DNA of 64,000 nt from Anaerolineales bacterium (lineage in GTDB: Bacteria > Chloroflexota > Anaerolineae > Anaerolineales > UBA6663): NCBI GenBank assembly GCA_020850595.1, contig JADZEK010000023.1, positions 6,222 to 70,221 of the forward strand, given 5' to 3'. The notes beneath the pieces were generated by a model. It did no database searches and was not told where the DNA came from. It saw only the letters and a list, made by a program, of their open reading frames with translations. Of the stretch, positions 1,378 through 35,584 are shown in pieces. The translations under genes were made by a program, and so were the position numbers. Numbering within the stretch: position 1 is the stretch's first letter; every line of letters begins with the position of its first letter.

Positions 1378-2250
1378 CTAGTTGTCGAACGGGATGGGCG
1401 GCGCGCCGCCGCCGAAGGGCGCATCGGGCCGCTCGTAGTCGCCGGCCAGGGCGCGGCGCAGCGGCGTGGTGCGCGCCAGCCAGGCCGGGTCGCTGGCCTC
1501 GCGGTCGGAGCGGCGCAGCCACGGCGGGCTGTAGATAAAGTGCATGTTGTAGCGGTCGTAGTCGAGCCGGCTGGGCATGGGGGAGTGCCAGACACCGTTG
1601 TGGAACATGAGCACCGAGCCACGCTTGGCGCAAATGACGTGCTGGATGGGGCTGGCCCAGACCTGCTTGCGGACGTCTTTGGGCAGCGGCACCGGGCTGC
1701 GGTGGCTGCCGGGGATCATGACCATGTTCCCCATGTCCGGCGCCGACTGGTCGGTGAGGTTGAAGCTGACGCGCAGTTGCAGCAGCGGCAGCGGGTAGGC
1801 GACATCGCGGAACTCGTACATGCTGGAGCCGTCCTGGTGCCAGGAGCTGCGCTCGCCGTGGGCGGGCATGACGGTGCACCAGGCGGCCTGGAGCACAAAG
1901 CGGTCGCCGTAGAGGGCGCGCACCTTGGGCAGCACGGCCGGGTGATCCATCAGGCGCTCAATGGCCGGCTCGGTCTCGAAGCCGCGGCCGATCTGTTTGA
2001 ACTTCTCGGCCGGCTGGTTGCCGTGCAGGCGTTTGGCGGCGGCCAGCACCTCGTCGCACTCCGCCTCGCTGAGCAGGTCGGGGATCAGCAGGTAGCCCCA
2101 GGCCTCGAACATGAAGCGCTCCATCTCGGTCATGGGGCCGGGCTGCGCCAGCGGCGTGAGCTGCAGGTGCTGCGGGTTGGGCGCCGGGCCGGCCGGCTCT
2201 GGCGAGCCGGGCAGAATGGCTTCCATCATCGAACAACCTCCTTCTGGCAA
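1378..2250 (-). CDS. phytanoyl-CoA dioxygenase (PhyH) family Fe(II)/2-oxoglutarate oxygenase
   Basis: 290-aa ORF with a PhyH-like layout (WHQDG...MIPGSH...FHNGVWHS, i.e. an HxD...H facial triad). High GC3. The true start may be an internal Met. Confidence 0.8.
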   Translation of the reverse strand: MPEGGCSMMEAILPGSPEPAGPAPNPQHLQLTPLAQPGPMTEMERFMFEAWGYLLIPDLLSEAECDEVLAAAKRLHGNQPAEKFKQIGRGFETEPAIERLMDHPAVLPKVRALYGDRFVLQAAWCTVMPAHGERSSWHQDGSSMYEFRDVAYPLPLLQLRVSFNLTDQSAPDMGNMVMIPGSHRSPVPLPKDVRKQVWASPIQHVICAKRGSVLMFHNGVWHSPMPSRLDYDRYNMHFIYSPPWLRRSDREASDPAWLARTTPLRRALAGDYERPDAPFGGGAPPIPFDN

Positions 2251-23308: not shown

Positions 23309-23870
23309 CCGCGCGCTGGCGTTGGGGCTGGTGGGCGCGCTGGCGCTAACGAGCGCCGGGCCGGCCCTGGCCCACTCCGGCTACGTGCGCTCGGAACCAG
23401 GCGCGGGGGCGGTGATCGCCGCGCCCCCCGCCCAGGTGGTAATCTGGTTCGAGCAAGACATGTTCCGGCGCGCCGGCGAGAACCGCCTCGAAGTGCTCGG
23501 GCCAGACGGCGCGGCCGTGACCACCGGCGAGGCAGTCATCAACGACGACGACCGGCGTATGCTCAGCGCGCCGCTGGCGGCGGACCTGCCCCCCGGCGAA
23601 TACACCGTCAACTGGCGCACGCTCTCGGCCGAAGACGGTGACGACGCCGAGGGCAGCTTCACCTTCACGCTCGACCCGGCGGCAGCGGTGACCAGCACAC
23701 CGATGGCGGCCCCGGCCACGCCGACCGACCTGCCGCCGACCGCCGCACCGGCCGCGCCCACGCCGACCCCGGCTCCGGCAGGCGGGCTGGGCTGCGGCGG
23801 GGCGCTGGCCCCGGTGTTTGGGCTGGCAGCCCTGGGATTGGGCGCGCGCCGCAAGGAGCGCCGCGCTTGA
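23298..23870 (+). CDS. copC: CopC-domain copper-binding protein with a C-terminal hydrophobic anchor
   Basis: Signal peptide, then a mature N-terminus HSGYVRSEPG..., and EYTVNWRTLSAEDGD (CopC fold signature). The C-terminus GGLGCGGALAPVFGLAALGLGARRKERRA resembles a sorting/anchor tail. Confidence 0.8.
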   Translation: MRTSRALALGLVGALALTSAGPALAHSGYVRSEPGAGAVIAAPPAQVVIWFEQDMFRRAGENRLEVLGPDGAAVTTGEAVINDDDRRMLSAPLAADLPPGEYTVNWRTLSAEDGDDAEGSFTFTLDPAAAVTSTPMAAPATPTDLPPTAAPAAPTPTPAPAGGLGCGGALAPVFGLAALGLGARRKERRA

Positions 23871-26341
23871 ACGCGCGCCGGCTGTGGCGCTGGGCCTCCG
23901 CGCTGGCCGCGCTGCTGTTGTTGGGGGCGCTGGCCGGGCGCGCGCAGGCGCACGCCATCCTGCTGCGCTCGAACCCGGCCGCCAACGCCGACCTGACCGC
24001 GCCGCCCGCCTTCATTGACCTGTGGTTCACCGAGGCGCTGGAGACGGACTTTAGCACGGCGCGGCTGGTGGACACGACCGGGGCCCAGGTGGACGCTAGC
24101 GCGGGCGCGCCGGTGTTCGACGCCGCCGATCCCACGCACCTCTCGCTGCCGGTGGGCCGGCTGGAGCCGGGCGTGTATACCGTCGTCTGGCAAACGCTCT
24201 CGCAGGTGGACGGGCACGAGTGGTACGGCTCGTTCCCGTTCACAGTGCTCAACGCGGACGGCTCACGCCCGAGCGGCACAGCGGCGGGCGGCAACGAAAA
24301 CGGCCGCAGTGAGCTGCCCTCCCCGCCGGAGGCGTTCTTCCGCTGGCTGGCGCTGCTGGGCGCGGCCCTGCTGTGGGGCGCGCCGCTGTTCCGGCTGCTG
24401 GCCGGGAGCGAGGCCGCGCCCGCCAAGCCGAGCAAGCGCCCGCCGGCCGAGGCCGCGCTGGCGACGCGCCTGACGCCGCTGGCGCGCTGGGCAGTTTGGG
24501 CGGCGGTTGGGCTGCTGCTGGTAGGCGGGCTGGGGCAGGTGGTGGTGCAGTCACTGCGGCTAGGCAGCCTGACCAACCTGCCCAAGGTGCTGCTCGACAC
24601 GCGTGGCGGGCTGCTGGCCCTAGTGCGGATGACGCCCGCGCTGGCGGCGCTGGCCCTTACGCTCACGGGGCCGGGCCGCGCCCGTGCGATCATGCGGCCG
24701 GCCTGGGTGGCGGCCGCCTTCTGCGGCTTGCTGCTGTTGTGGTCGGCGGCGCAGGGCGGCTACTGGCTGACGGCCGGGTGGGCGGCGCTGACCGTGGGGC
24801 TGGGGCTACTGCTGGCGTGGCGTGAGCGGACAACCACCGTGGGGTGGCTGGGCTGGCTCGCCTTGCTGCTGCTGGCGCTGGGCAGTTTGGGCGGCTACAG
24901 CGCGGCCAGCCACGCCGCCGCCGTGCAGGGGCGCGGCTGGGCGGTGCTGAGCGACTACGCGCACCTGCTGGCGGCCGGAACCTGGCTGGGCGGGCTGCTG
25001 CTGCTGCCCTGGCTGCTGTGGCGCGAGCGCGCCGTGAGCGACCCGGCCGCGCGCCCGGCCGCCTGGAAGCTGGCGCGGCGCTATTCCTACCTGGCGAGCT
25101 TGTCCGTCTTCGTGCTGGCGCTCACCGGGCTGGTGAACAGCCTGGTGCAATTGCCCGACCTGGCGAGCCTGTGGGGCACGGCCTATGGGCGCGTGCTGCT
25201 GCTCAAGTTGGGCGTGCTGGGCGCGGCCATGCTGCTGGCGCTGCTGAACAACCGCCTGCTGCACGGCAGGCGCAAGCCCGCTGCCGAGGCGGCGGCGCTG
25301 AACCAGCTCCGGCGGCAAGCGTGGGTCGAGGCGGGCGTGGCGCTGGGGCTGATGCTGATGGTGGCGGTGCTGGTGCAGACCTCCACGCCGCGCTTCCTGG
25401 CGCCGGCCACGGCCTACACGCCGCAACTGCCGTTCACCACCACGCTCGTCGCCGACGACCTGAACCTGCATGTGCAAATCACGCCCAACGTGGTGGGCGA
25501 CAACAAGTTCTGGCTGCACCTGTACCACGGCGACAGCACGTCGGTGGGCGAGGTGCAGTTGGTGCAACTGCGCTTCAACTACCTCAATGCGCAGTTGGGG
25601 CAGGCCAGCGTGGACCTAAACGCCCTGGGCCGCGCCACGTTCGAGGCCGGCGGCGCGTACCTGAGCCAGAGCGGCCCGTGGGCGCTCTCGGTCTACATCC
25701 GCCGCCGCGGGCTGGATGATGTACTGACGACGTTTAACGTGACGGTGCCCGCGCCAACGAATGTGGCGGGCGGCAGCCAATGGTGGGCCAACCCCGTGCC
25801 GGGCGTGCCCGGGCTGGTGATCGCGGCGCTGGTGCTGCTGGGTCTAGGGCTGGCGCCCATCATCTGGCGGCGGCCGCTGGCGGGGTTGGGGGCGCGCGCG
25901 CGCTCGACTGCCACCATCGCCGGGTTCCTCAGCCTGACGGTGGCGCTAGGTTTCAGCGTGGCCGGCGCGCCCGCCTGGCGCGACCAAATCCTGGCGCAGC
26001 AGGCGGCCAACCGCACGAACCCCATCCCGGCCAGCGCTGAGTCGCTGGCGGCGGGCAAGCAGTTGTTCGCCGAGAACTGCGCGCCGTGCCACGGGCCGCT
26101 GGGCCTGGGCGACGGCCCGGTGGGCCTGACGCTGCGGCCCGCGCCCGCCAACCTGCAAGTGCACATGGTGCCGGGCGTGCACACCGATGCGCAAATCTTC
26201 GACTGGATCAGCAACGGCTTCCCAGACTCGCAGATGCCGGCCTTCGCCACGGTGCTGACCGAGGACGAGCGCTGGCATATCCTCAACTACATCCGCACGC
26301 TCGTGCCGCCAGACTCGGTGGTGACGCCGCCGGCGCAGTAG
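23867..26341 (+). CDS. CopC-CopD fusion protein with an extra periplasmic beta domain and a C-terminal class I cytochrome c
   Basis: 824 aa. N-terminal HAILLRSNPA...VYTVVWQTLSQVDGHE (CopC), then about 8 TM helices (CopD), a YtkA/FixH-like segment, a TM helix, then CAPCHG...QMPAF (heme c site). 4-nt overlap with copC. Confidence 0.85.
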   Translation: MNARRLWRWASALAALLLLGALAGRAQAHAILLRSNPAANADLTAPPAFIDLWFTEALETDFSTARLVDTTGAQVDASAGAPVFDAADPTHLSLPVGRLEPGVYTVVWQTLSQVDGHEWYGSFPFTVLNADGSRPSGTAAGGNENGRSELPSPPEAFFRWLALLGAALLWGAPLFRLLAGSEAAPAKPSKRPPAEAALATRLTPLARWAVWAAVGLLLVGGLGQVVVQSLRLGSLTNLPKVLLDTRGGLLALVRMTPALAALALTLTGPGRARAIMRPAWVAAAFCGLLLLWSAAQGGYWLTAGWAALTVGLGLLLAWRERTTTVGWLGWLALLLLALGSLGGYSAASHAAAVQGRGWAVLSDYAHLLAAGTWLGGLLLLPWLLWRERAVSDPAARPAAWKLARRYSYLASLSVFVLALTGLVNSLVQLPDLASLWGTAYGRVLLLKLGVLGAAMLLALLNNRLLHGRRKPAAEAAALNQLRRQAWVEAGVALGLMLMVAVLVQTSTPRFLAPATAYTPQLPFTTTLVADDLNLHVQITPNVVGDNKFWLHLYHGDSTSVGEVQLVQLRFNYLNAQLGQASVDLNALGRATFEAGGAYLSQSGPWALSVYIRRRGLDDVLTTFNVTVPAPTNVAGGSQWWANPVPGVPGLVIAALVLLGLGLAPIIWRRPLAGLGARARSTATIAGFLSLTVALGFSVAGAPAWRDQILAQQAANRTNPIPASAESLAAGKQLFAENCAPCHGPLGLGDGPVGLTLRPAPANLQVHMVPGVHTDAQIFDWISNGFPDSQMPAFATVLTEDERWHILNYIRTLVPPDSVVTPPAQ

Positions 26342-30703: not shown

Positions 30704-31324
30704 CTAGAGCAGGTCTTCGAGCGGCGGGGCGCCGGGCAGCAGCGCGTGCTGGACAAACGGGGCCAGCGCCCGCTCGCCGACAGCCACATAGCCGGCGCGC
30801 AGCCGGTCGGCCAGCGAACGCAGGCAGGCCTGGTAGAGTGTCGCCGGGTCGAGGGCGGCCAGGCGCGCCTCCAACTGGCGCGGCTCGCCGGCCATGTCGT
30901 GCGCGGCGCGGCGCTGGGCCAGCAGGCCCTCGATGGCGGCGGCCAGGTGGTCGGAGACGCTGGCCGGAAATTGCAGCGCCAGGATGGGCGCGGGCGAGTC
31001 GAGTTGCAGCACTACGTAGTCAGGCTCTGCGTCCAGGGTGATCCGGCCGCCGAGGGTAAAGGCCTCGACCTTCTTGCCTACGCGGTCTTGCAGGATCACG
31101 CGCCCGGCCGCGGCGGTGTAGTCGTGGTCGGCGGGCCAAGGATGGAACACGCGCAGCGGCTCGATTTCGCCCAGGCGGGTAACGACCGGCAGGGTGACGT
31201 GCTCAGGGTCGTAGTGGGCGTGGGTGGGGCGGGCGCGCAGCACCACGCGCAGCCGCGAGTGCGCGGGCGCGTCCGGCGAGCAGTCAGGCTCAAAGGCGTA
31301 GCCGAAGTCGGGGTGGTTGGTCAT
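30704..31324 (-). CDS. hypothetical protein (206 aa)
   Basis: Clean high-GC3 ORF. No family recognised. Confidence 0.6.
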   Translation of the reverse strand: MTNHPDFGYAFEPDCSPDAPAHSRLRVVLRARPTHAHYDPEHVTLPVVTRLGEIEPLRVFHPWPADHDYTAAAGRVILQDRVGKKVEAFTLGGRITLDAEPDYVVLQLDSPAPILALQFPASVSDHLAAAIEGLLAQRRAAHDMAGEPRQLEARLAALDPATLYQACLRSLADRLRAGYVAVGERALAPFVQHALLPGAPPLEDLL

Positions 31325-31408
31325 GCCTTAATTTTAGCGGCCGAGGCCGTCGCCGTCCGGTGATCTTCGTCCTGACCTGCCCCCTGGCCTCCGTGGGTAT
31401 TTTGCGCC

Positions 31409-31438
31409 TTGACACGCATAGACAAACTTCTATATAAT
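31409..31438 (+). promoter_or_regulatory. near-consensus sigma-70-type promoter
   Basis: TTGACA (31409-14), 18-nt spacer, TATAAT (31433-38). Confidence 0.6.
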
Positions 31439-31625
31439 CGCAACACATAGACGATCATCAATGTAACAGGCTGGGTCAGACGGCTGGCGATCATGCCCCA
31501 GGGTGTGCCGTTCTCGGCCATGATCACGGCTCAGCGTAGCTGGGCTGACAGTACGGCCCACCAAGCGCAGCCGGCCAACCGGCGGCGCAGACAACACTGC
31601 CCGTGGGAGGAAGGAGGTGACAACC

Positions 31626-31706
31626 ATGACCAAGCCTGTGTGGCGCGACCCCGAAACGTGCGAGGACGAGGGGTGCTGCGGCGGGGGCGGGTGCTGCGGC
31701 GGCTAA
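31626..31706 (+). CDS. 26-aa Cys/Gly-rich micropeptide MTKPVWRDPETCEDEGCCGGGGCCGG
   Basis: My translation (below the track length cutoff). A strong SD (GGGAGGAAGGAGGTGA) ends 5-6 nt before the ATG. A consensus promoter lies about 190 nt upstream, and a perfect terminator lies about 70 nt downstream. Confidence 0.5.
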   Translation: MTKPVWRDPETCEDEGCCGGGGCCGG

Positions 31707-31773
31707 GCCGCCCGCGCCGGGGAGGGCCGCGGCCTCTCCGGCCCGACGGCCATCCAAAGCATTACAGCTTGTT

Positions 31774-31809
31774 AGCGGACGGTGAGGCCTCACCGTCCGC
31801 TTGCGTTTT
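31774..31809 (+). terminator. intrinsic terminator
   Basis: AGCGGACGGTGAGG / CCTCACCGTCCGCT perfect 14-nt arms, then TGCGTTTT. Confidence 0.8.
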
Positions 31810-31828
31810 GCCGCCGTGAGCCGGGCGT

Positions 31829-32443
31829 CTACGCCCCGCGTCGCTTGCGCCGCGTGAGGGCGTAGACGCCCATGACGACGGCGCCCGCCAGCAGCAGGGC
31901 CGGCGCGGGCCACCACCGGGTCGGCCCAGGCGGCGCGGGGATGACGGCGCGCTCGGCGGCGCTGCGGCTGTGGCGGCGGGCCAGTTCCAGCAGCAGGCTG
32001 CGCTCGCCCTGGCGCATGGCCCAGTGGTGGTTGGCCGAGAAGAGGGGCTTCATAATAAAGGACAGGTCGCGCAGCAGCGGCTTGTCGGCCCGCACCCACC
32101 AGTCGTAGGTGACGACGACCTCGGGGCCGTCTTGCGTGAGGGTCCAGATGCCGCGGCCGTTGAAGTCGCCGCGCGCGTCGAGGCGGAAACTGCCGGGGCG
32201 CACGTCGGTGACGGTGAACTGCCAGCGCAGGGTGTAGGGCAGCCAGCCCTTGGTGAACAGGCCGACCTCGCGGCCCAGGCCGGTGGCCGGGTCGCCGGGG
32301 GCCAGCTCGGTAACTTCCAGGTAGACCGACGGCCACCAGCGCGCCAGGTCGGGCGCGTTGCCCAGGATGGCGGTGATCTCTTCGACGGTGCTGGGCACGC
32401 GCCAGGTGGTGATGAAGTGGTAGTCGTTGTCGGCGAGGTTCAT
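31829..32443 (-). CDS. SRPBCC (START/polyketide-cyclase-like) domain protein with a C-terminal TM anchor
   Basis: 204 aa. The YHFITTWRV...ARWWP... pattern is typical of the SRPBCC superfamily. C-terminal WWPAPALLLAGAVVMGVYAL TM segment. Confidence 0.7.
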   Translation of the reverse strand: MNLADNDYHFITTWRVPSTVEEITAILGNAPDLARWWPSVYLEVTELAPGDPATGLGREVGLFTKGWLPYTLRWQFTVTDVRPGSFRLDARGDFNGRGIWTLTQDGPEVVVTYDWWVRADKPLLRDLSFIMKPLFSANHHWAMRQGERSLLLELARRHSRSAAERAVIPAPPGPTRWWPAPALLLAGAVVMGVYALTRRKRRGA

Positions 32444-33430: not shown

Positions 33431-33703
33431 TTAAATGACCAAAGCGCGGTTGTTTTGGCGCGGGCGAATATTGATCAGCGCCTCAAACGTAATCTGTCCG
33501 CTGGCCGGGTCCCAATCCGCGCCCCAAATGTCTTCTTGAGCGCTGCCGTCTTCCAGCAACATCGTCTCGCAATCGACATGCATGACGCCGCCAGCCAGGA
33601 CGCCGCGTTGGATGTCCACGGCCACCTTGATATAGGTGCCGAGCGCCCGGAGCATTTCAGTGACTTCTGGGGTCGTAACAGGTGTGCGAACGATGAGCAC
33701 CAT
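33431..33703 (-). CDS. DUF5674-like small protein (90 aa)
   Basis: IVRTPVTTPEV.EM.......IKVAVDIQRGVLAGG...H.D.E..LLEDGS.QEDIWGA resembles the DUF5674 consensus as I recall it. Confidence 0.6.
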   Translation of the reverse strand: MVLIVRTPVTTPEVTEMLRALGTYIKVAVDIQRGVLAGGVMHVDCETMLLEDGSAQEDIWGADWDPASGQITFEALINIRPRQNNRALVI

Positions 33704-33743
33704 GGCGATTTGACCTTATGCCCTAATCATAGCGCAGACGCGG

Positions 33744-33771
33744 CATCAGGCCGCACCTCGCTTCACCAGCG
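33744..33771. repeat. 28-nt direct repeat, copy B (covers the last codons and stop of the nuclease gene)
   Basis: catcaggccgCAcctcgcttcaccagcg. Confidence 0.85.
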
Positions 33772-34729
33772 CCGCCAGCTCGCCAATCGGCCGCAGCTGC
33801 GCTACCGCTACCGCGCGGTTGTCGGTCTGCGTCTTGGGGTACTGCCATACCGCCGCCCCGCGCGGCAGGCGGCGGCTGCGCTCACGGAACTCGGCCTTCG
33901 TCAGCCACCCGGCGATGAAGACCTCCAGCCCGTAGACCCAAATGTTCACCCAGTCCTTGGGCGCGATCAGCTGTGTCTGGCGCAGGGCGGCGCTACGCAC
34001 GCCGATTTGGCCCGCGGGCAGCTCGGCCGCGTGCAGGTAGAGCAGCGTGTAATACTCGGCCGCCGTCACCGTGCGGGCGCGCGGCGCGAGCATCAGCCTC
34101 TCGGCGCGGGCGGCGCGGGCGGCGTCTTGCCCGCCCACCTCCAGCCGCAGCGGCCGCGGGCCGTCGCTCTTCAAGATCAGCCGGCCCAGCGAGCGCCAGG
34201 CCGCCTCGCCCCCGCGCCACTCGGGTCGCTCCAGCACGTGCAGCAGGTACACCGGCTGCTCGGCGCGCAGCGCGCGGTCCAGCGCGTCGGCCCCGCGCGT
34301 CTCCAGCCCAGCCAGGAAGCCGAACACATACACATCGGCCTCGTCCAGACGGTCACTGTGGAACTGGTCTTCGGGCACCAGCGCCTCGGCCGCGTAGAGC
34401 AGCGTGGGGTCGCGCCGCAGCGCGCTGATCTGCGCCTTGTCGCTCACCAAAAAGCTCTTCAGGTCGCAGCGCCGGCCGCCCAGGCGCAGGTCGTAGCGGT
34501 CGGGCGCGGTGAAGGGCGTAGCGCCCAGGCGCTCGTAGCGCGCGCCCTGCGTGTCGAGCCAACGCTGAAAAGCCAGCTCGACCGCCACGCCGGCCACGAT
34601 CTTGCGCAGGCGCGCGCCGGCCCCCAGGCGCATGCGGTTGTAGGTGTAGTGCAGGCTGCGCTTGGCGTACTCGATCCCGGCCCGCGTCAGCGTGGCGTCA
34701 TAAGGCAGGCGCAGCAGGGCGGGCGGCAT
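33746..34729 (-). CDS. putative type II restriction endonuclease (PD-(D/E)xK fold candidate)
   Basis: 327-aa ORF, 6 nt downstream of the methyltransferase gene. Contains APDRYDLRLGGRRCDLKS (PD-x11-D-L-K), preceded by a helix with a conserved Glu (VAVELAFQRW). Confidence 0.55.
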   Translation of the reverse strand: MPPALLRLPYDATLTRAGIEYAKRSLHYTYNRMRLGAGARLRKIVAGVAVELAFQRWLDTQGARYERLGATPFTAPDRYDLRLGGRRCDLKSFLVSDKAQISALRRDPTLLYAAEALVPEDQFHSDRLDEADVYVFGFLAGLETRGADALDRALRAEQPVYLLHVLERPEWRGGEAAWRSLGRLILKSDGPRPLRLEVGGQDAARAARAERLMLAPRARTVTAAEYYTLLYLHAAELPAGQIGVRSAALRQTQLIAPKDWVNIWVYGLEVFIAGWLTKAEFRERSRRLPRGAAVWQYPKTQTDNRAVAVAQLRPIGELAALVKRGAA

Positions 34730-34735
34730 GGCGGC

Positions 34736-35584
34736 TCAGACGGCGGGGTCAGTCAGCTCGTTCCGGAACTGCAAGCAGTAGTGATGGAAGGTGTTGCTGA
34801 CCCAGGCGTTGCCCAGGCCGTAGGGCGCGAGGCGCTGGTTGTCCTGCGCCCAGATGCGCTCGTCCTTGAGGGCGTAGGTGCGGCTTAGCTCGCGCGCCAA
34901 ATCCCAGGCCAGCGGGTAGATGCGCCCGCCCTTCTTCACGTTTTTCACGATGATGGTCAGGTAGGCGCGCGGCTTGAGCACCGGCTGGAGCGCGGCGTAG
35001 ATAGCCGTGAGTTGCCGCACGAAGGCCTCGTAATCGGCCACGTTGCCCAGGTCGCGCGGGTCGTCGGAGTAGAACACATCCAGCCCGGGCGTGGCGCGGC
35101 GCAGCTTCTGCGTGGCGGCCCCGCGCGCCCGCAGCATGTCCCAATAGGGCGGCGAGGTCAGCACGTAATCTATTTTGGGCAGCTTCAGCGCGCCCGCCTG
35201 CGCGGCGTCGGCGTTGAAGAGCAGCGGCACGCGGGTCTTAGGCACCCGGCCCAGCGCGGCGATCTCATCGGCCACCACCTGCTGCGCCACCCCAAAGTAG
35301 CGCTCGTTCAGCTCAATGCCCACGCTCCGGCGCTTGGCGCGCAGCGCCGCCACTAGCGTCGAGCCGGTGCCCACCATCGGGTCGAGCACGGTTTGCCCGC
35401 GCTTGGTGAAGAAACGGATGAACTCCTCCGCCAGCGTCTCGGGGAACTTGGCCGGGTGCAGGCGCACGTCTGCCCGGCGCGGCGGCGGGTTGTGGATGAA
35501 CCACGACTTCTGAAACTTGAGCCAGGTCTTGCCGTCGAGGTCGTTGAGTTTGTTGCGGGTTTTTGGGGGGGCGGCGGCGGGCAT
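34736..35584 (-). CDS. site-specific DNA methyltransferase (N4-C/N6-A family), motif I placed before motif IV
   Basis: HPAKFPETLAEEFIRFFTKRGQTVLDPMVGTGST (motif X/I), followed about 100 aa later by DYVLTSPPYWDM (motif IV, SPPY). Confidence 0.8.
   Translation of the reverse strand: MPAAAPPKTRNKLNDLDGKTWLKFQKSWFIHNPPPRRADVRLHPAKFPETLAEEFIRFFTKRGQTVLDPMVGTGSTLVAALRAKRRSVGIELNERYFGVAQQVVADEIAALGRVPKTRVPLLFNADAAQAGALKLPKIDYVLTSPPYWDMLRARGAATQKLRRATPGLDVFYSDDPRDLGNVADYEAFVRQLTAIYAALQPVLKPRAYLTIIVKNVKKGGRIYPLAWDLARELSRTYALKDERIWAQDNQRLAPYGLGNAWVSNTFHHYCLQFRNELTDPAV

Follow-up and report, generated by a model that had tools for sequence, protein, structure and literature searches.

Results

A micro-gene unit with its own promoter, operators and terminator

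A 64-kb stretch (about 69% GC) of contig JADZEK010000023.1 from an Anaerolineales bacterium, referred to here as the window, carries at positions 31409 to 31809 a small unit whose product would be a peptide of 26 amino acids (aa) with an acidic middle and a CC-GGGG-CC tail. Codon comparisons indicate that this micro-gene is protein-coding, most of its relatives lie among arsenic resistance (ars) genes, and the reading that we favour, with moderate confidence, is that the peptide binds trivalent arsenic. The parts of the unit are as follows.

31409-31438, plus strand: sigma-70 promoter TTGACA-18-TATAAT, matching the consensus at 12 of 12 positions
31418-31433, no strand assigned: operator 1, ATAGACAAACTTCTAT, a palindrome free of mismatches in the promoter spacer
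31447-31462, no strand assigned: operator 2, ATAGACGATCATCAAT, a palindrome with one mismatch that spans the predicted transcription start
31472-31540, plus strand: remnant of the 3' end of arsM, by translation, tblastn and alignment to the related contig L001
31612-31619, plus strand: Shine-Dalgarno sequence AGGAGGTG, read from the sequence, 6 nt before the ATG
31626-31706, plus strand: open reading frame (ORF) of the micro-gene, 26 aa, MTKPVWRDPETCEDEGCCGGGGCCGG, five cysteines; ATG at 31626, frame kept in relatives
31717-31741, plus strand: stem-loop, beginning about 11 nt past the micro-gene stop codon
31774-31809, plus strand: intrinsic terminator, a 12-bp stem with a 4-nt loop (31774-31801) followed by TGCGTTTTG

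The promoter is the sole promoter-like site between 30500 and 32600, where shuffled sequences lead one to expect 0.1, and its -35 element, spacer and -10 element are kept in four related loci (L001, L002, L003 and L009, described below). An alternative GTG at 31617 opens the same frame but sits within the Shine-Dalgarno sequence; the ATG, with its Shine-Dalgarno spacing, is the start kept in all relatives. Counted from the predicted transcription start, the leader is about 180 nt long. The first-pass annotation of the window had described a near-consensus promoter, a strong Shine-Dalgarno sequence, a 26-codon ORF opening at ATG 31626 and a GC palindrome downstream, and all of these are present, the palindrome as the hairpin at about 31717-31741. 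The terminator likewise lies where it was placed, but it is not the perfect one with 14-nt arms that was claimed: its stem is 12 bp long, its T-tract is interrupted, and it grades as good. It is kept in L001, and because the opposite strand of 31774-31809 has no T-run, it serves the micro-gene. The next gene, on the minus strand at 31829-32443, encodes an SRPBCC/polyketide-cyclase-like protein and converges on the unit, which with its own terminator is monocistronic and self-contained, as had been proposed.

The micro-ORF is conserved as a coding frame

Three contigs, L001 to L003, carry close homologues of a neighbouring 206-aa gene, and were thus found by synteny and not by the peptide. All three have a micro-ORF at the same place, encoding MTKPVWRDPDNCEDEGCCGGGGGCCGG (L001), MTNQLWQRNPDECEDAGCCGGGGCGC (L002) and MTKPVWMQAPDDCEDEGCCGGGGCCG (L003). 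A codon alignment made by hand of the window, these three loci and L009 has three indels, each of a length divisible by three. Over the C-terminal half the proportion of synonymous differences (pS) is 0.35-0.69 and that of non-synonymous differences (pN) is 0-0.12; for the closest pair, L002 and L009, both are about 0.11-0.12, and between the window and L001 or L003 pN is 0 in this half at a pS of about 0.6. An independent set, assembled through a neighbouring ArsR regulator gene with no peptide pattern, gives pN/pS of about 0.2-0.3 for divergent pairs, in-frame indels and variable columns distributed 10/10/20 over the three codon positions. In this way nine further loci, found only through ArsR, repeat the pattern of the synteny loci, and codon usage follows GC content with the residues unchanged. 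The selection tests use only loci found by synteny or via the ArsR neighbour, because members found by a peptide pattern cannot prove conservation of that pattern. The nucleotides drift and the frame stays, the reverse of the outcome that the earlier annotation had named as refuting; the locus is therefore a gene for a peptide, as opposed to one for RNA alone. Judged by these codon patterns, the micro-ORF is a conserved protein-coding gene, far beyond chance; the purifying-selection check that the earlier annotation had proposed comes out in its favour, as the synteny loci keep the frame through synonymous changes and in-frame indels.

The leader carries the scar of a deleted arsM

In L001 a gene of 252 aa lies on the same strand between the promoter/operator and the micro-ORF. 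Its product is the arsenite methyltransferase ArsM, scoring 290.6 bits on NF008823 (cut-off 263), and an ACR3 arsenite pump (454 bits, cut-off 282.8) converges on it. In the alignment the leader in the window consists of the L001 promoter/operator followed by the final part of arsM and by the spacer that separates arsM from the micro-ORF. Positions 31472-31540 translate as ...GVPFSAMITAQRSW, where the intact L001 ArsM ends ...GVPFSAMITAQRS before its stop codon; in tblastn the remnant and ArsM are 69.6% identical over the last 23 residues. The stop codon of the remnant is mutated from TGA to TGG, because of which a spurious 108-aa ORF (31493-31819, plus strand) now overlaps the micro-gene in another frame. 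The leaders of L002, L003 and L009 lack about 130 nt and any trace of arsM.

It had been suggested that the long leader is a riboswitch or a small RNA, making the transcript a dual-function RNA. The leader alone folds no better than its shuffles (z = -0.99); the whole transcript reaches z = -2.7 because of its 3' hairpins. Rfam gives no match at the gathering score over the whole window, so the proposed check for a known RNA family came back empty, and at E <= 10 within 31300-31850 only chance-level small-RNA matches appear (E of 5-8). Since the middle of the leader is an arsM fragment that is missing in the closest relatives, and the leader folds at shuffle level, the RNA reading is not supported. 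As the alignment has it, the leader in the window is the operator followed by the last 23 codons of a deleted arsM, and not a riboswitch. The ancestral operon would have been promoter/operator, arsM and micro-gene, as in L001, and a deletion of about 750 bp of arsM in the window lineage would have made the micro-gene stand-alone, with the scar as its leader.

A family of micro-genes, most of them next to arsR

The family comprises 23 loci with 18 distinct peptides of 23-29 aa and 5-7 cysteines (19-26%), in DNA of 44-69% GC. All the peptides end in C-x(0,1)-C-GGGG(G)-C-[CG], and (A)GGAGGT stands at the same spacing before the ATG in 23 of 23 loci, whatever their GC content. Some members came from a scan of species-representative genomes and metagenomes with the degenerate DNA pattern for C-[DE]-[DE]-x-G-C-C-G-G-G(-G), in which 14 of 20 matches were chance occurrences inside longer frames. 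The genome matches include two real members, L009 from an Anaerolineales metagenome-assembled genome (MAG), with the peptide MTNQLWQRNPDDCEDEGCCGGGGCCAH, and L006 from an Anaerolineaceae MAG, with MTTFYHDSDCDCDDSGCCGGGGGCGC. Metagenomes add three more peptides, one of them present in two loci: MLIRRTDPGCCDDSGCCGGGGCC (L018), MNKLHYKNDCGCDEGGCCGGGGCC (L020) and MTDFFWNDPTGGDCCDDEGCCGGGGCCGG (shared by L021 and L023). An ArsR/SmtB regulator gene immediately precedes the micro-ORF in L006, L018, L020 and L023. Five members of this ArsR subfamily were then looked up, picked solely for their long contigs, and in four of the five an unannotated micro-ORF follows arsR immediately. Given that these look-ups were picked without the peptide, the pairing of arsR with the micro-ORF is not a selection artefact. 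Their peptides read MNELIV(L/W)N..GCEDC..GCCGGGGCC, M(K/N)ELYLQNDCGCGEGECGCGGGGCC, MTELTVLNTNCGCEEGSCSCGGGGCC and M(LE/ID)L(T/V)V(I/V)NNNCGCEECEGSCSCGGGGCC. In all, the micro-ORF adjoins arsR in 17 loci.

Past the stop codon of every member, at a distance of about 6-25 nt, a stable hairpin begins. Its stem varies in sequence between members, some of the changes being compensatory, such as a G-C pair of the window that is A-T in L001. Promoter/operator, Shine-Dalgarno sequence, ORF and hairpin thus make each micro-gene a compact module.

No gene caller recorded the micro-gene in any family locus, which bears out the earlier remark that ORF tracks miss it. A wrong-frame gene of 81 aa is called over the micro-ORF in L036, and probably an overlapping wrong-frame gene on the contig P0004; a related contig has a gene of 110 aa called at the equivalent place. 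In public gene calls the real gene is therefore hidden. Two representative peptides have no NCBIfam or Pfam match at E <= 1. With four family peptides joined into a 105-aa query, no match at E <= 10 appears among 5.8 billion proteins, a search in which low-complexity scoring may hide matches; the gene is therefore absent as a called protein. Nothing in a plasmid collection matches the locus, the ArsR subfamily or the spacer between arsR and the micro-ORF. Literature searches aimed at the peptide yielded no description of it, and the family appears to be undescribed, in line with the initial impression that the peptide belongs to no recognised family. A sequence that recalls the tail of the micro-peptide, CCSCCGGGGGGCGGGAGCEDPGCCGGGGGGCC, occurs at about 1665-1740 (minus strand) of L015, a Polyangia MAG, inside a 289-codon frame of doubtful coding status, and may have arisen by chance in DNA so rich in GC.

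Arsenic genes around the micro-gene

Nine loci (L028-L035 and L038) share one layout: a gene X (107 aa, in L028-L035 only), arsR, the micro-ORF, an ArsP_1 permease, a membrane peptide of 41-43 aa and arsM. ArsM exceeds its NCBIfam cut-off in L023 (283 bits), L028 (308.6) and L038 (314.6) as it does in L001, and ACR3 exceeds its own in L038 (466 bits). Ahead of the L038 cluster lie ArsP_1, an MTH895/ArsE thioredoxin-like gene, a radical-SAM/SPASM gene and ACR3. The micro-ORF is followed on the same strand by arsP and arsM in the low-GC loci, where arsP has its own operator-bearing promoter. No arsA or arsD is called in any locus, and the fetched micro-gene loci contain no cadmium, zinc, copper or mercury pump (P-type ATPase, CDF or Mer). 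Because ArsM and ACR3 score above their cut-offs, ArsP_1 is present and the window retains a remnant of arsM, the micro-gene clusters with ars operons.

The X protein (75-107 aa) carries the motif ERLCCPFLKF, with a vicinal cysteine pair, and is encoded just upstream of arsR with a 4-nt overlap with the arsR start. It lies at 2681-3004 in L028 (also in L029-L031 and L033-L035), in a shorter form at 2777-3004 in L032, and at 11-304 in L020. X has no Pfam or NCBIfam match and is a second uncharacterised member of the candidate ArsR regulon. The hydrophobic mini-protein of 41-43 aa (M..ILLVLIGAILFGLVRSTETILDIRQS...) between ArsP_1 and arsM, at 4615-4746 in L028, 4691-4816 in L033 and 5161-5286 in L038, has no family match either. 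On the minus strand of L023 two arsM genes follow the micro-ORF in tandem, one truncated (1888-2355, 155 aa, ending soon past the motifs that bind S-adenosylmethionine) and one of full length (1058-1855). The thioredoxin-like and radical-SAM/SPASM genes lie upstream of ACR3-arsR at 816-2354 in L038 and at 439-1986 in L039; the radical-SAM protein has an AbrB/MazE-like N-terminus, and its nearest model is a tungsten-cofactor maturase (288 bits against a cut-off of 380).

A shared palindrome and a four-cysteine ArsR subfamily

The two operators in the window are instances of an 18-bp palindrome with the consensus TATmGAC-N4-GTCkATA (or ATAGAC-N4-GTCTAT). Micro-genes with a promoter of their own have the palindrome, as AT[AC]GA-N6-TC[TG]AT, at 35-110 nt upstream of the ATG; for L001 and the window its place is the operon promoter, farther from the ATG. 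The window holds two matches, where 0.15 are expected, and both are at the micro-gene promoter. Operator 1 is identical to the sites before arsR and before the micro-ORF in L036 and L037. The tandem spacing of 29-30 bp is kept in L002, L003 and L009, in which the site of operator 2 is a perfect palindrome. All fetched loci with arsR have 2-4 copies each, namely a tandem pair 26 bp apart before arsR (or, in loci with X, before X-arsR), a single copy before the micro-ORF and another before arsP, whereas 14 unrelated loci contain none. The tandem palindrome before arsR is consistent with autoregulation.

The four ArsR proteins of L006, L018, L020 and L023 share two invariant vicinal cysteine pairs, at about residues 29/30 and 83/84, and their profile matches at least 6,498 protein clusters at E <= 1e-20. 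From the distribution of the sites we infer that this CC/CC subfamily binds the palindrome. The promoter in the window would then be among its targets, and the gene for the regulator would lie outside the 64 kb.

Discussion

A candidate arsenic-binding peptide

The micro-gene probably encodes an ArsR-repressed, arsenite-induced thiol peptide that would chelate or chaperone trivalent arsenic, As(III), or its methylated form, MAs(III). This is our reading because the ORF codes under selection, appears to belong to an ArsR-type regulon, is physically linked to ArsM, ACR3 and ArsP in several lineages, carries an arsM remnant before it in the window, and persists after the loss of arsM. The first-pass annotation had proposed a soft-metal thiolate role with copper among the candidates; the thiolate role stands as the best reading, with arsenic pointed to by the genomic context, while the link to copper is unsupported. 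When no metalloid is present, a dimeric CC/CC ArsR-family repressor, encoded elsewhere in the genome, would occupy both ATAGAC-N4-GTCTAT palindromes, cover the spacer between -35 and -10 as well as the transcription start, and keep the consensus promoter shut. Binding of As(III) or methyl-As(III) to the repressor thiols would release it, and the strong promoter and strong Shine-Dalgarno sequence would then yield a burst of the 26-residue peptide. Its thiols (5 here, 5-7 in relatives), in vicinal pairs joined by a flexible Gly4 linker, would bind the trivalent metalloid, which would be kept off cellular dithiols and perhaps handed to ArsM or to efflux permeases (ACR3, ArsP-type). The peptide would thus serve as a gene-encoded phytochelatin-like or mini-metallothionein part of ars operons. 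As(III) coordinates three thiolates and MAs(III) two. Vicinal cysteine pairs are the As(III) sites in ArsD and in several ArsR types (PMC2440759, PMC4562236), and gene-encoded (Glu-Cys)n peptides engineered into bacteria raise arsenic binding (PMC4611968).

Several observations weigh against an arsenic-binding role. The transcription, translation and metal binding of the micro-gene are predictions from its sequence, and the acidic residues of the peptide are unnecessary for binding As(III). In 5 of the 23 loci (the window, L002, L003, L009 and L018) the DNA fetched contains no intact ars structural gene. A tblastn search for arsR finds none in the window, which has no other ars gene, and control of this copy is accordingly read from its operator. 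The permease scores best against copper and zinc efflux models, though far below their cut-offs. The closest solved ArsR-family structures are SrnR, HlyU and CzrA, none of them an arsenic sensor. A four-cysteine ArsR site has been judged compatible with cadmium, zinc and lead as well as arsenic (10.1101/2022.10.17.512643), and the site of this subfamily could prefer cadmium, zinc, lead or mercury.

These last points also speak for a mini-metallothionein directed at cadmium, zinc, copper, mercury, lead or antimony, under a four-cysteine ArsR/SmtB sensor, in which case the ars genes would reflect mixed metal islands. Two CC pairs are present in the sensor, and cadmium, zinc or lead often occupy four-thiolate sites (10.1101/2022.10.17.512643); its nearest solved relatives are nickel and zinc sensors and HlyU; and the CC-G4-CC tail could make an S4 site. 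Yet in several independent lineages it is ArsM and ACR3, at curated cut-offs, with which the operator is shared, other metal pumps are missing from the fetched micro-gene loci, and the CopC/CopD gene of the window lies 5 kb off and has no operator, so that a preference for another metal seems unlikely, if not negligibly so. ArsM requires a thiol reductant, and the micro-gene is co-transcribed or clustered with ArsM and, in the L038 island, accompanied by the MTH895/ArsE thioredoxin-like protein; its dithiols might therefore regenerate ArsM or reduce As(V) or MAs(V) in place of chelation. Such a redox helper is a rather improbable role for a peptide whose stand-alone copies persist after arsM was lost (the window) or with no arsM nearby (L002, L003 and L009). 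Eight-membered vicinal disulfide rings are moreover strained and rare as redox couples, and 5-7 cysteines are more chelator-like. A reading as the precursor of a ribosomally synthesised and post-translationally modified peptide, which had been suggested earlier, or as a modification substrate carrying radical-SAM/SPASM thioethers or S-methylated by the adjacent methyltransferase, draws on the fact that short cysteine-rich peptides are typical radical-SAM substrates, on the radical-SAM/SPASM gene 1.5-2.8 kb upstream in L038 and L039, and on the methyltransferase genes adjoining the micro-gene in L001, L006 and L023. No maturase is conserved with the peptide, however: only 2 of 23 loci have the radical-SAM gene, the window lacks a homologue, and the gene product resembles a metalloenzyme maturase while falling below every family cut-off. 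The methyltransferases are bona fide ArsM by the curated cut-off, no protease, transporter or leader-recognition gene is conserved, and the only universal partners are the ArsR operator and the hairpin, all of which makes this reading very improbable.

Could the ORF instead act in cis, as a leader peptide or attenuator in which stalling at cysteine codons controls the hairpin past the stop, or be incidental to a riboswitch or small RNA? The hairpin is present in all members, arsP and arsM follow on the same strand in the low-GC loci, and the whole transcript folds better than expected (z = -2.7). There is, however, no same-strand gene downstream in the window, L001 or L018; in L001 the ORF comes after arsM and is followed by a terminator; and arsP has an operator-bearing promoter of its own. 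Glycine and acidic residues are kept through synonymous change, which attenuation does not require, Rfam has no match, and the leader, at shuffle level when folded alone, has as its middle the arsM fragment that L002, L003 and L009 lack. We regard a cis-regulatory role as having very little probability. It is a separate matter whether the copy in the window is a decaying relic of a broken ars operon, unregulated or unexpressed even if the family functions elsewhere: arsM is deleted and its stop codon mutated, operator 2 has a mismatch, and no ars gene or arsR lies within the 64 kb. Against this, the promoter matches at 12 of 12 positions, the Shine-Dalgarno sequence, ORF, hairpin and terminator are intact, the C-terminal half shows zero non-synonymous differences from L001 and L003 despite a pS of about 0.6, and L002, L003 and L009 keep the same stand-alone layout. 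We consider decay scarcely probable, and the arsenic-binding peptide remains the reading that we prefer.

Relation to known systems

The closest parallel in logic is SmtB/SmtA of Synechococcus, in which, as predicted here from the sequence, an ArsR/SmtB-family repressor acts at palindromic promoter operators on a small cysteine-rich, presumably sequestering peptide within a self-contained unit. The micro-peptide has no sequence similarity to SmtA (no Pfam match); it measures 23-29 aa against about 56, lacks histidine ligands and a zinc-finger-like fold, and places vicinal cysteine pairs around a Gly4 linker, and its context is arsenic (ArsM, ACR3, ArsP) where that of SmtA is zinc. With bacterial metallothioneins of the SmtA/BmtA kind it shares small size and high cysteine content but not profile similarity, and it is half the size of the smallest of them. 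MymT, a very small metal-induced cysteine-rich copper metallothionein of mycobacteria, was long missed by annotation; it has about 53 aa and is specific for Cu(I). Its regulation is different, and it has no sequence relation to the micro-peptide.

In chemistry the likeness is to ArsD, which is also encoded in ars operons and takes up As(III) through vicinal cysteine pairs before transferring it to a resistance protein (PMC2440759, PMC4562236). ArsD, however, has about 120 aa and a thioredoxin fold and works with the ArsA ATPase; none of the loci has arsA or arsD, and the micro-peptide is too short to fold alone. Phytochelatins and EC20, an engineered synthetic phytochelatin, are likewise short, acidic, cysteine-rich peptides, with Glu-Cys repeats, that chelate As(III) and cadmium, and several family members contain phytochelatin-like stretches (C-E-D-C-E, C-E-E-C-E or C-G-C-E-E). 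Phytochelatins are made enzymatically with gamma-Glu bonds and EC20 is artificial, whereas the micro-peptide is ribosomal, and its CC-GGGG-CC tail has no counterpart in either. Compared by description only, AntC, encoded in the Comamonas testosteroni ant operon, is another small metalloid-operon protein under a metalloid-sensing repressor, which sequesters the metalloid, then supplies it to an exporter (PMC12641948). The partner of AntC is the P-type ATPase AntA, and no P-type ATPase stands beside the micro-gene. By analogy, then, the micro-gene is like SmtB/SmtA in logic and like ArsD and phytochelatins in chemistry, and is a member of none of these.

Implications

According to a paper of 2025, ars operons contain no known genes for sequestration inside the cell (PMC12093948). 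The micro-gene would be one, should its peptide bind arsenic. In that case its product, at 23-29 residues, would to our knowledge be the smallest natural gene-encoded chelator of a metal or metalloid. It is possible, and we propose it tentatively, that the family is a widespread ribosomal counterpart of phytochelatins and the missing intracellular arsenic-binding or chaperone part of ars operons in uncultured anaerobes (e.g. Anaerolineae), which would be induced through the four-cysteine ArsR, carry As(III) and MAs(III) to ArsM and to ArsP or ACR3, and perhaps take over the role of glutathione as arsenic carrier in lineages that lack it. The family is invisible to arsenic-gene surveys because it falls below the length limits of gene callers, which either omit the micro-gene or call a wrong-frame ORF across the locus, a lesson for annotation. 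The four-cysteine ArsR, the 18-bp operator and three promoters define a candidate regulon. This ArsR lineage is common in metagenomes and bears on arsenic methylation in paddy soils and sediments, and the peptide, with what is predicted to be a tightly repressed consensus promoter, offers parts for arsenic biosensing and bioaccumulation.

Neighbouring genes in the window

A gene at 23867-26341 (plus strand), 5 kb from the micro-gene, encodes an 824-aa fusion of CopC, CopD and a C-terminal cytochrome c, and this copper cluster had been taken as a clue to function. The palindrome scan of the 64 kb finds no ArsR-type operator at the CopC/CopD gene and nothing fetched ties it to the micro-gene, whose conserved partners are ArsR operators and ars genes; we therefore set the copper link aside. 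The divergent 206-aa gene (30704-31324, minus strand) has 45 homologues, nearly all metagenomic, and no Pfam or NCBIfam match. Its AlphaFold model (mean predicted local distance difference test, pLDDT, 92.8) shows a beta-sandwich and a helical bundle and resembles only ATP-synthase epsilon, weakly (template modelling, TM, scores 0.33/0.48). The promoter of this gene must overlap the operator region of the micro-gene. Its distant homologues (L024-L027 and the contig P0017) come with no micro-ORF and no ars context, and the 206-aa gene was rejected as a functional partner. Farther along, 33431-35584 (minus strand) encodes a DUF5674 protein (90 aa), an unannotated protein of 327 aa and an N6/N4 DNA methyltransferase (282 aa). 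The latter two recur beside the locus in the related contig P0004, which suggests a restriction-modification-like module.

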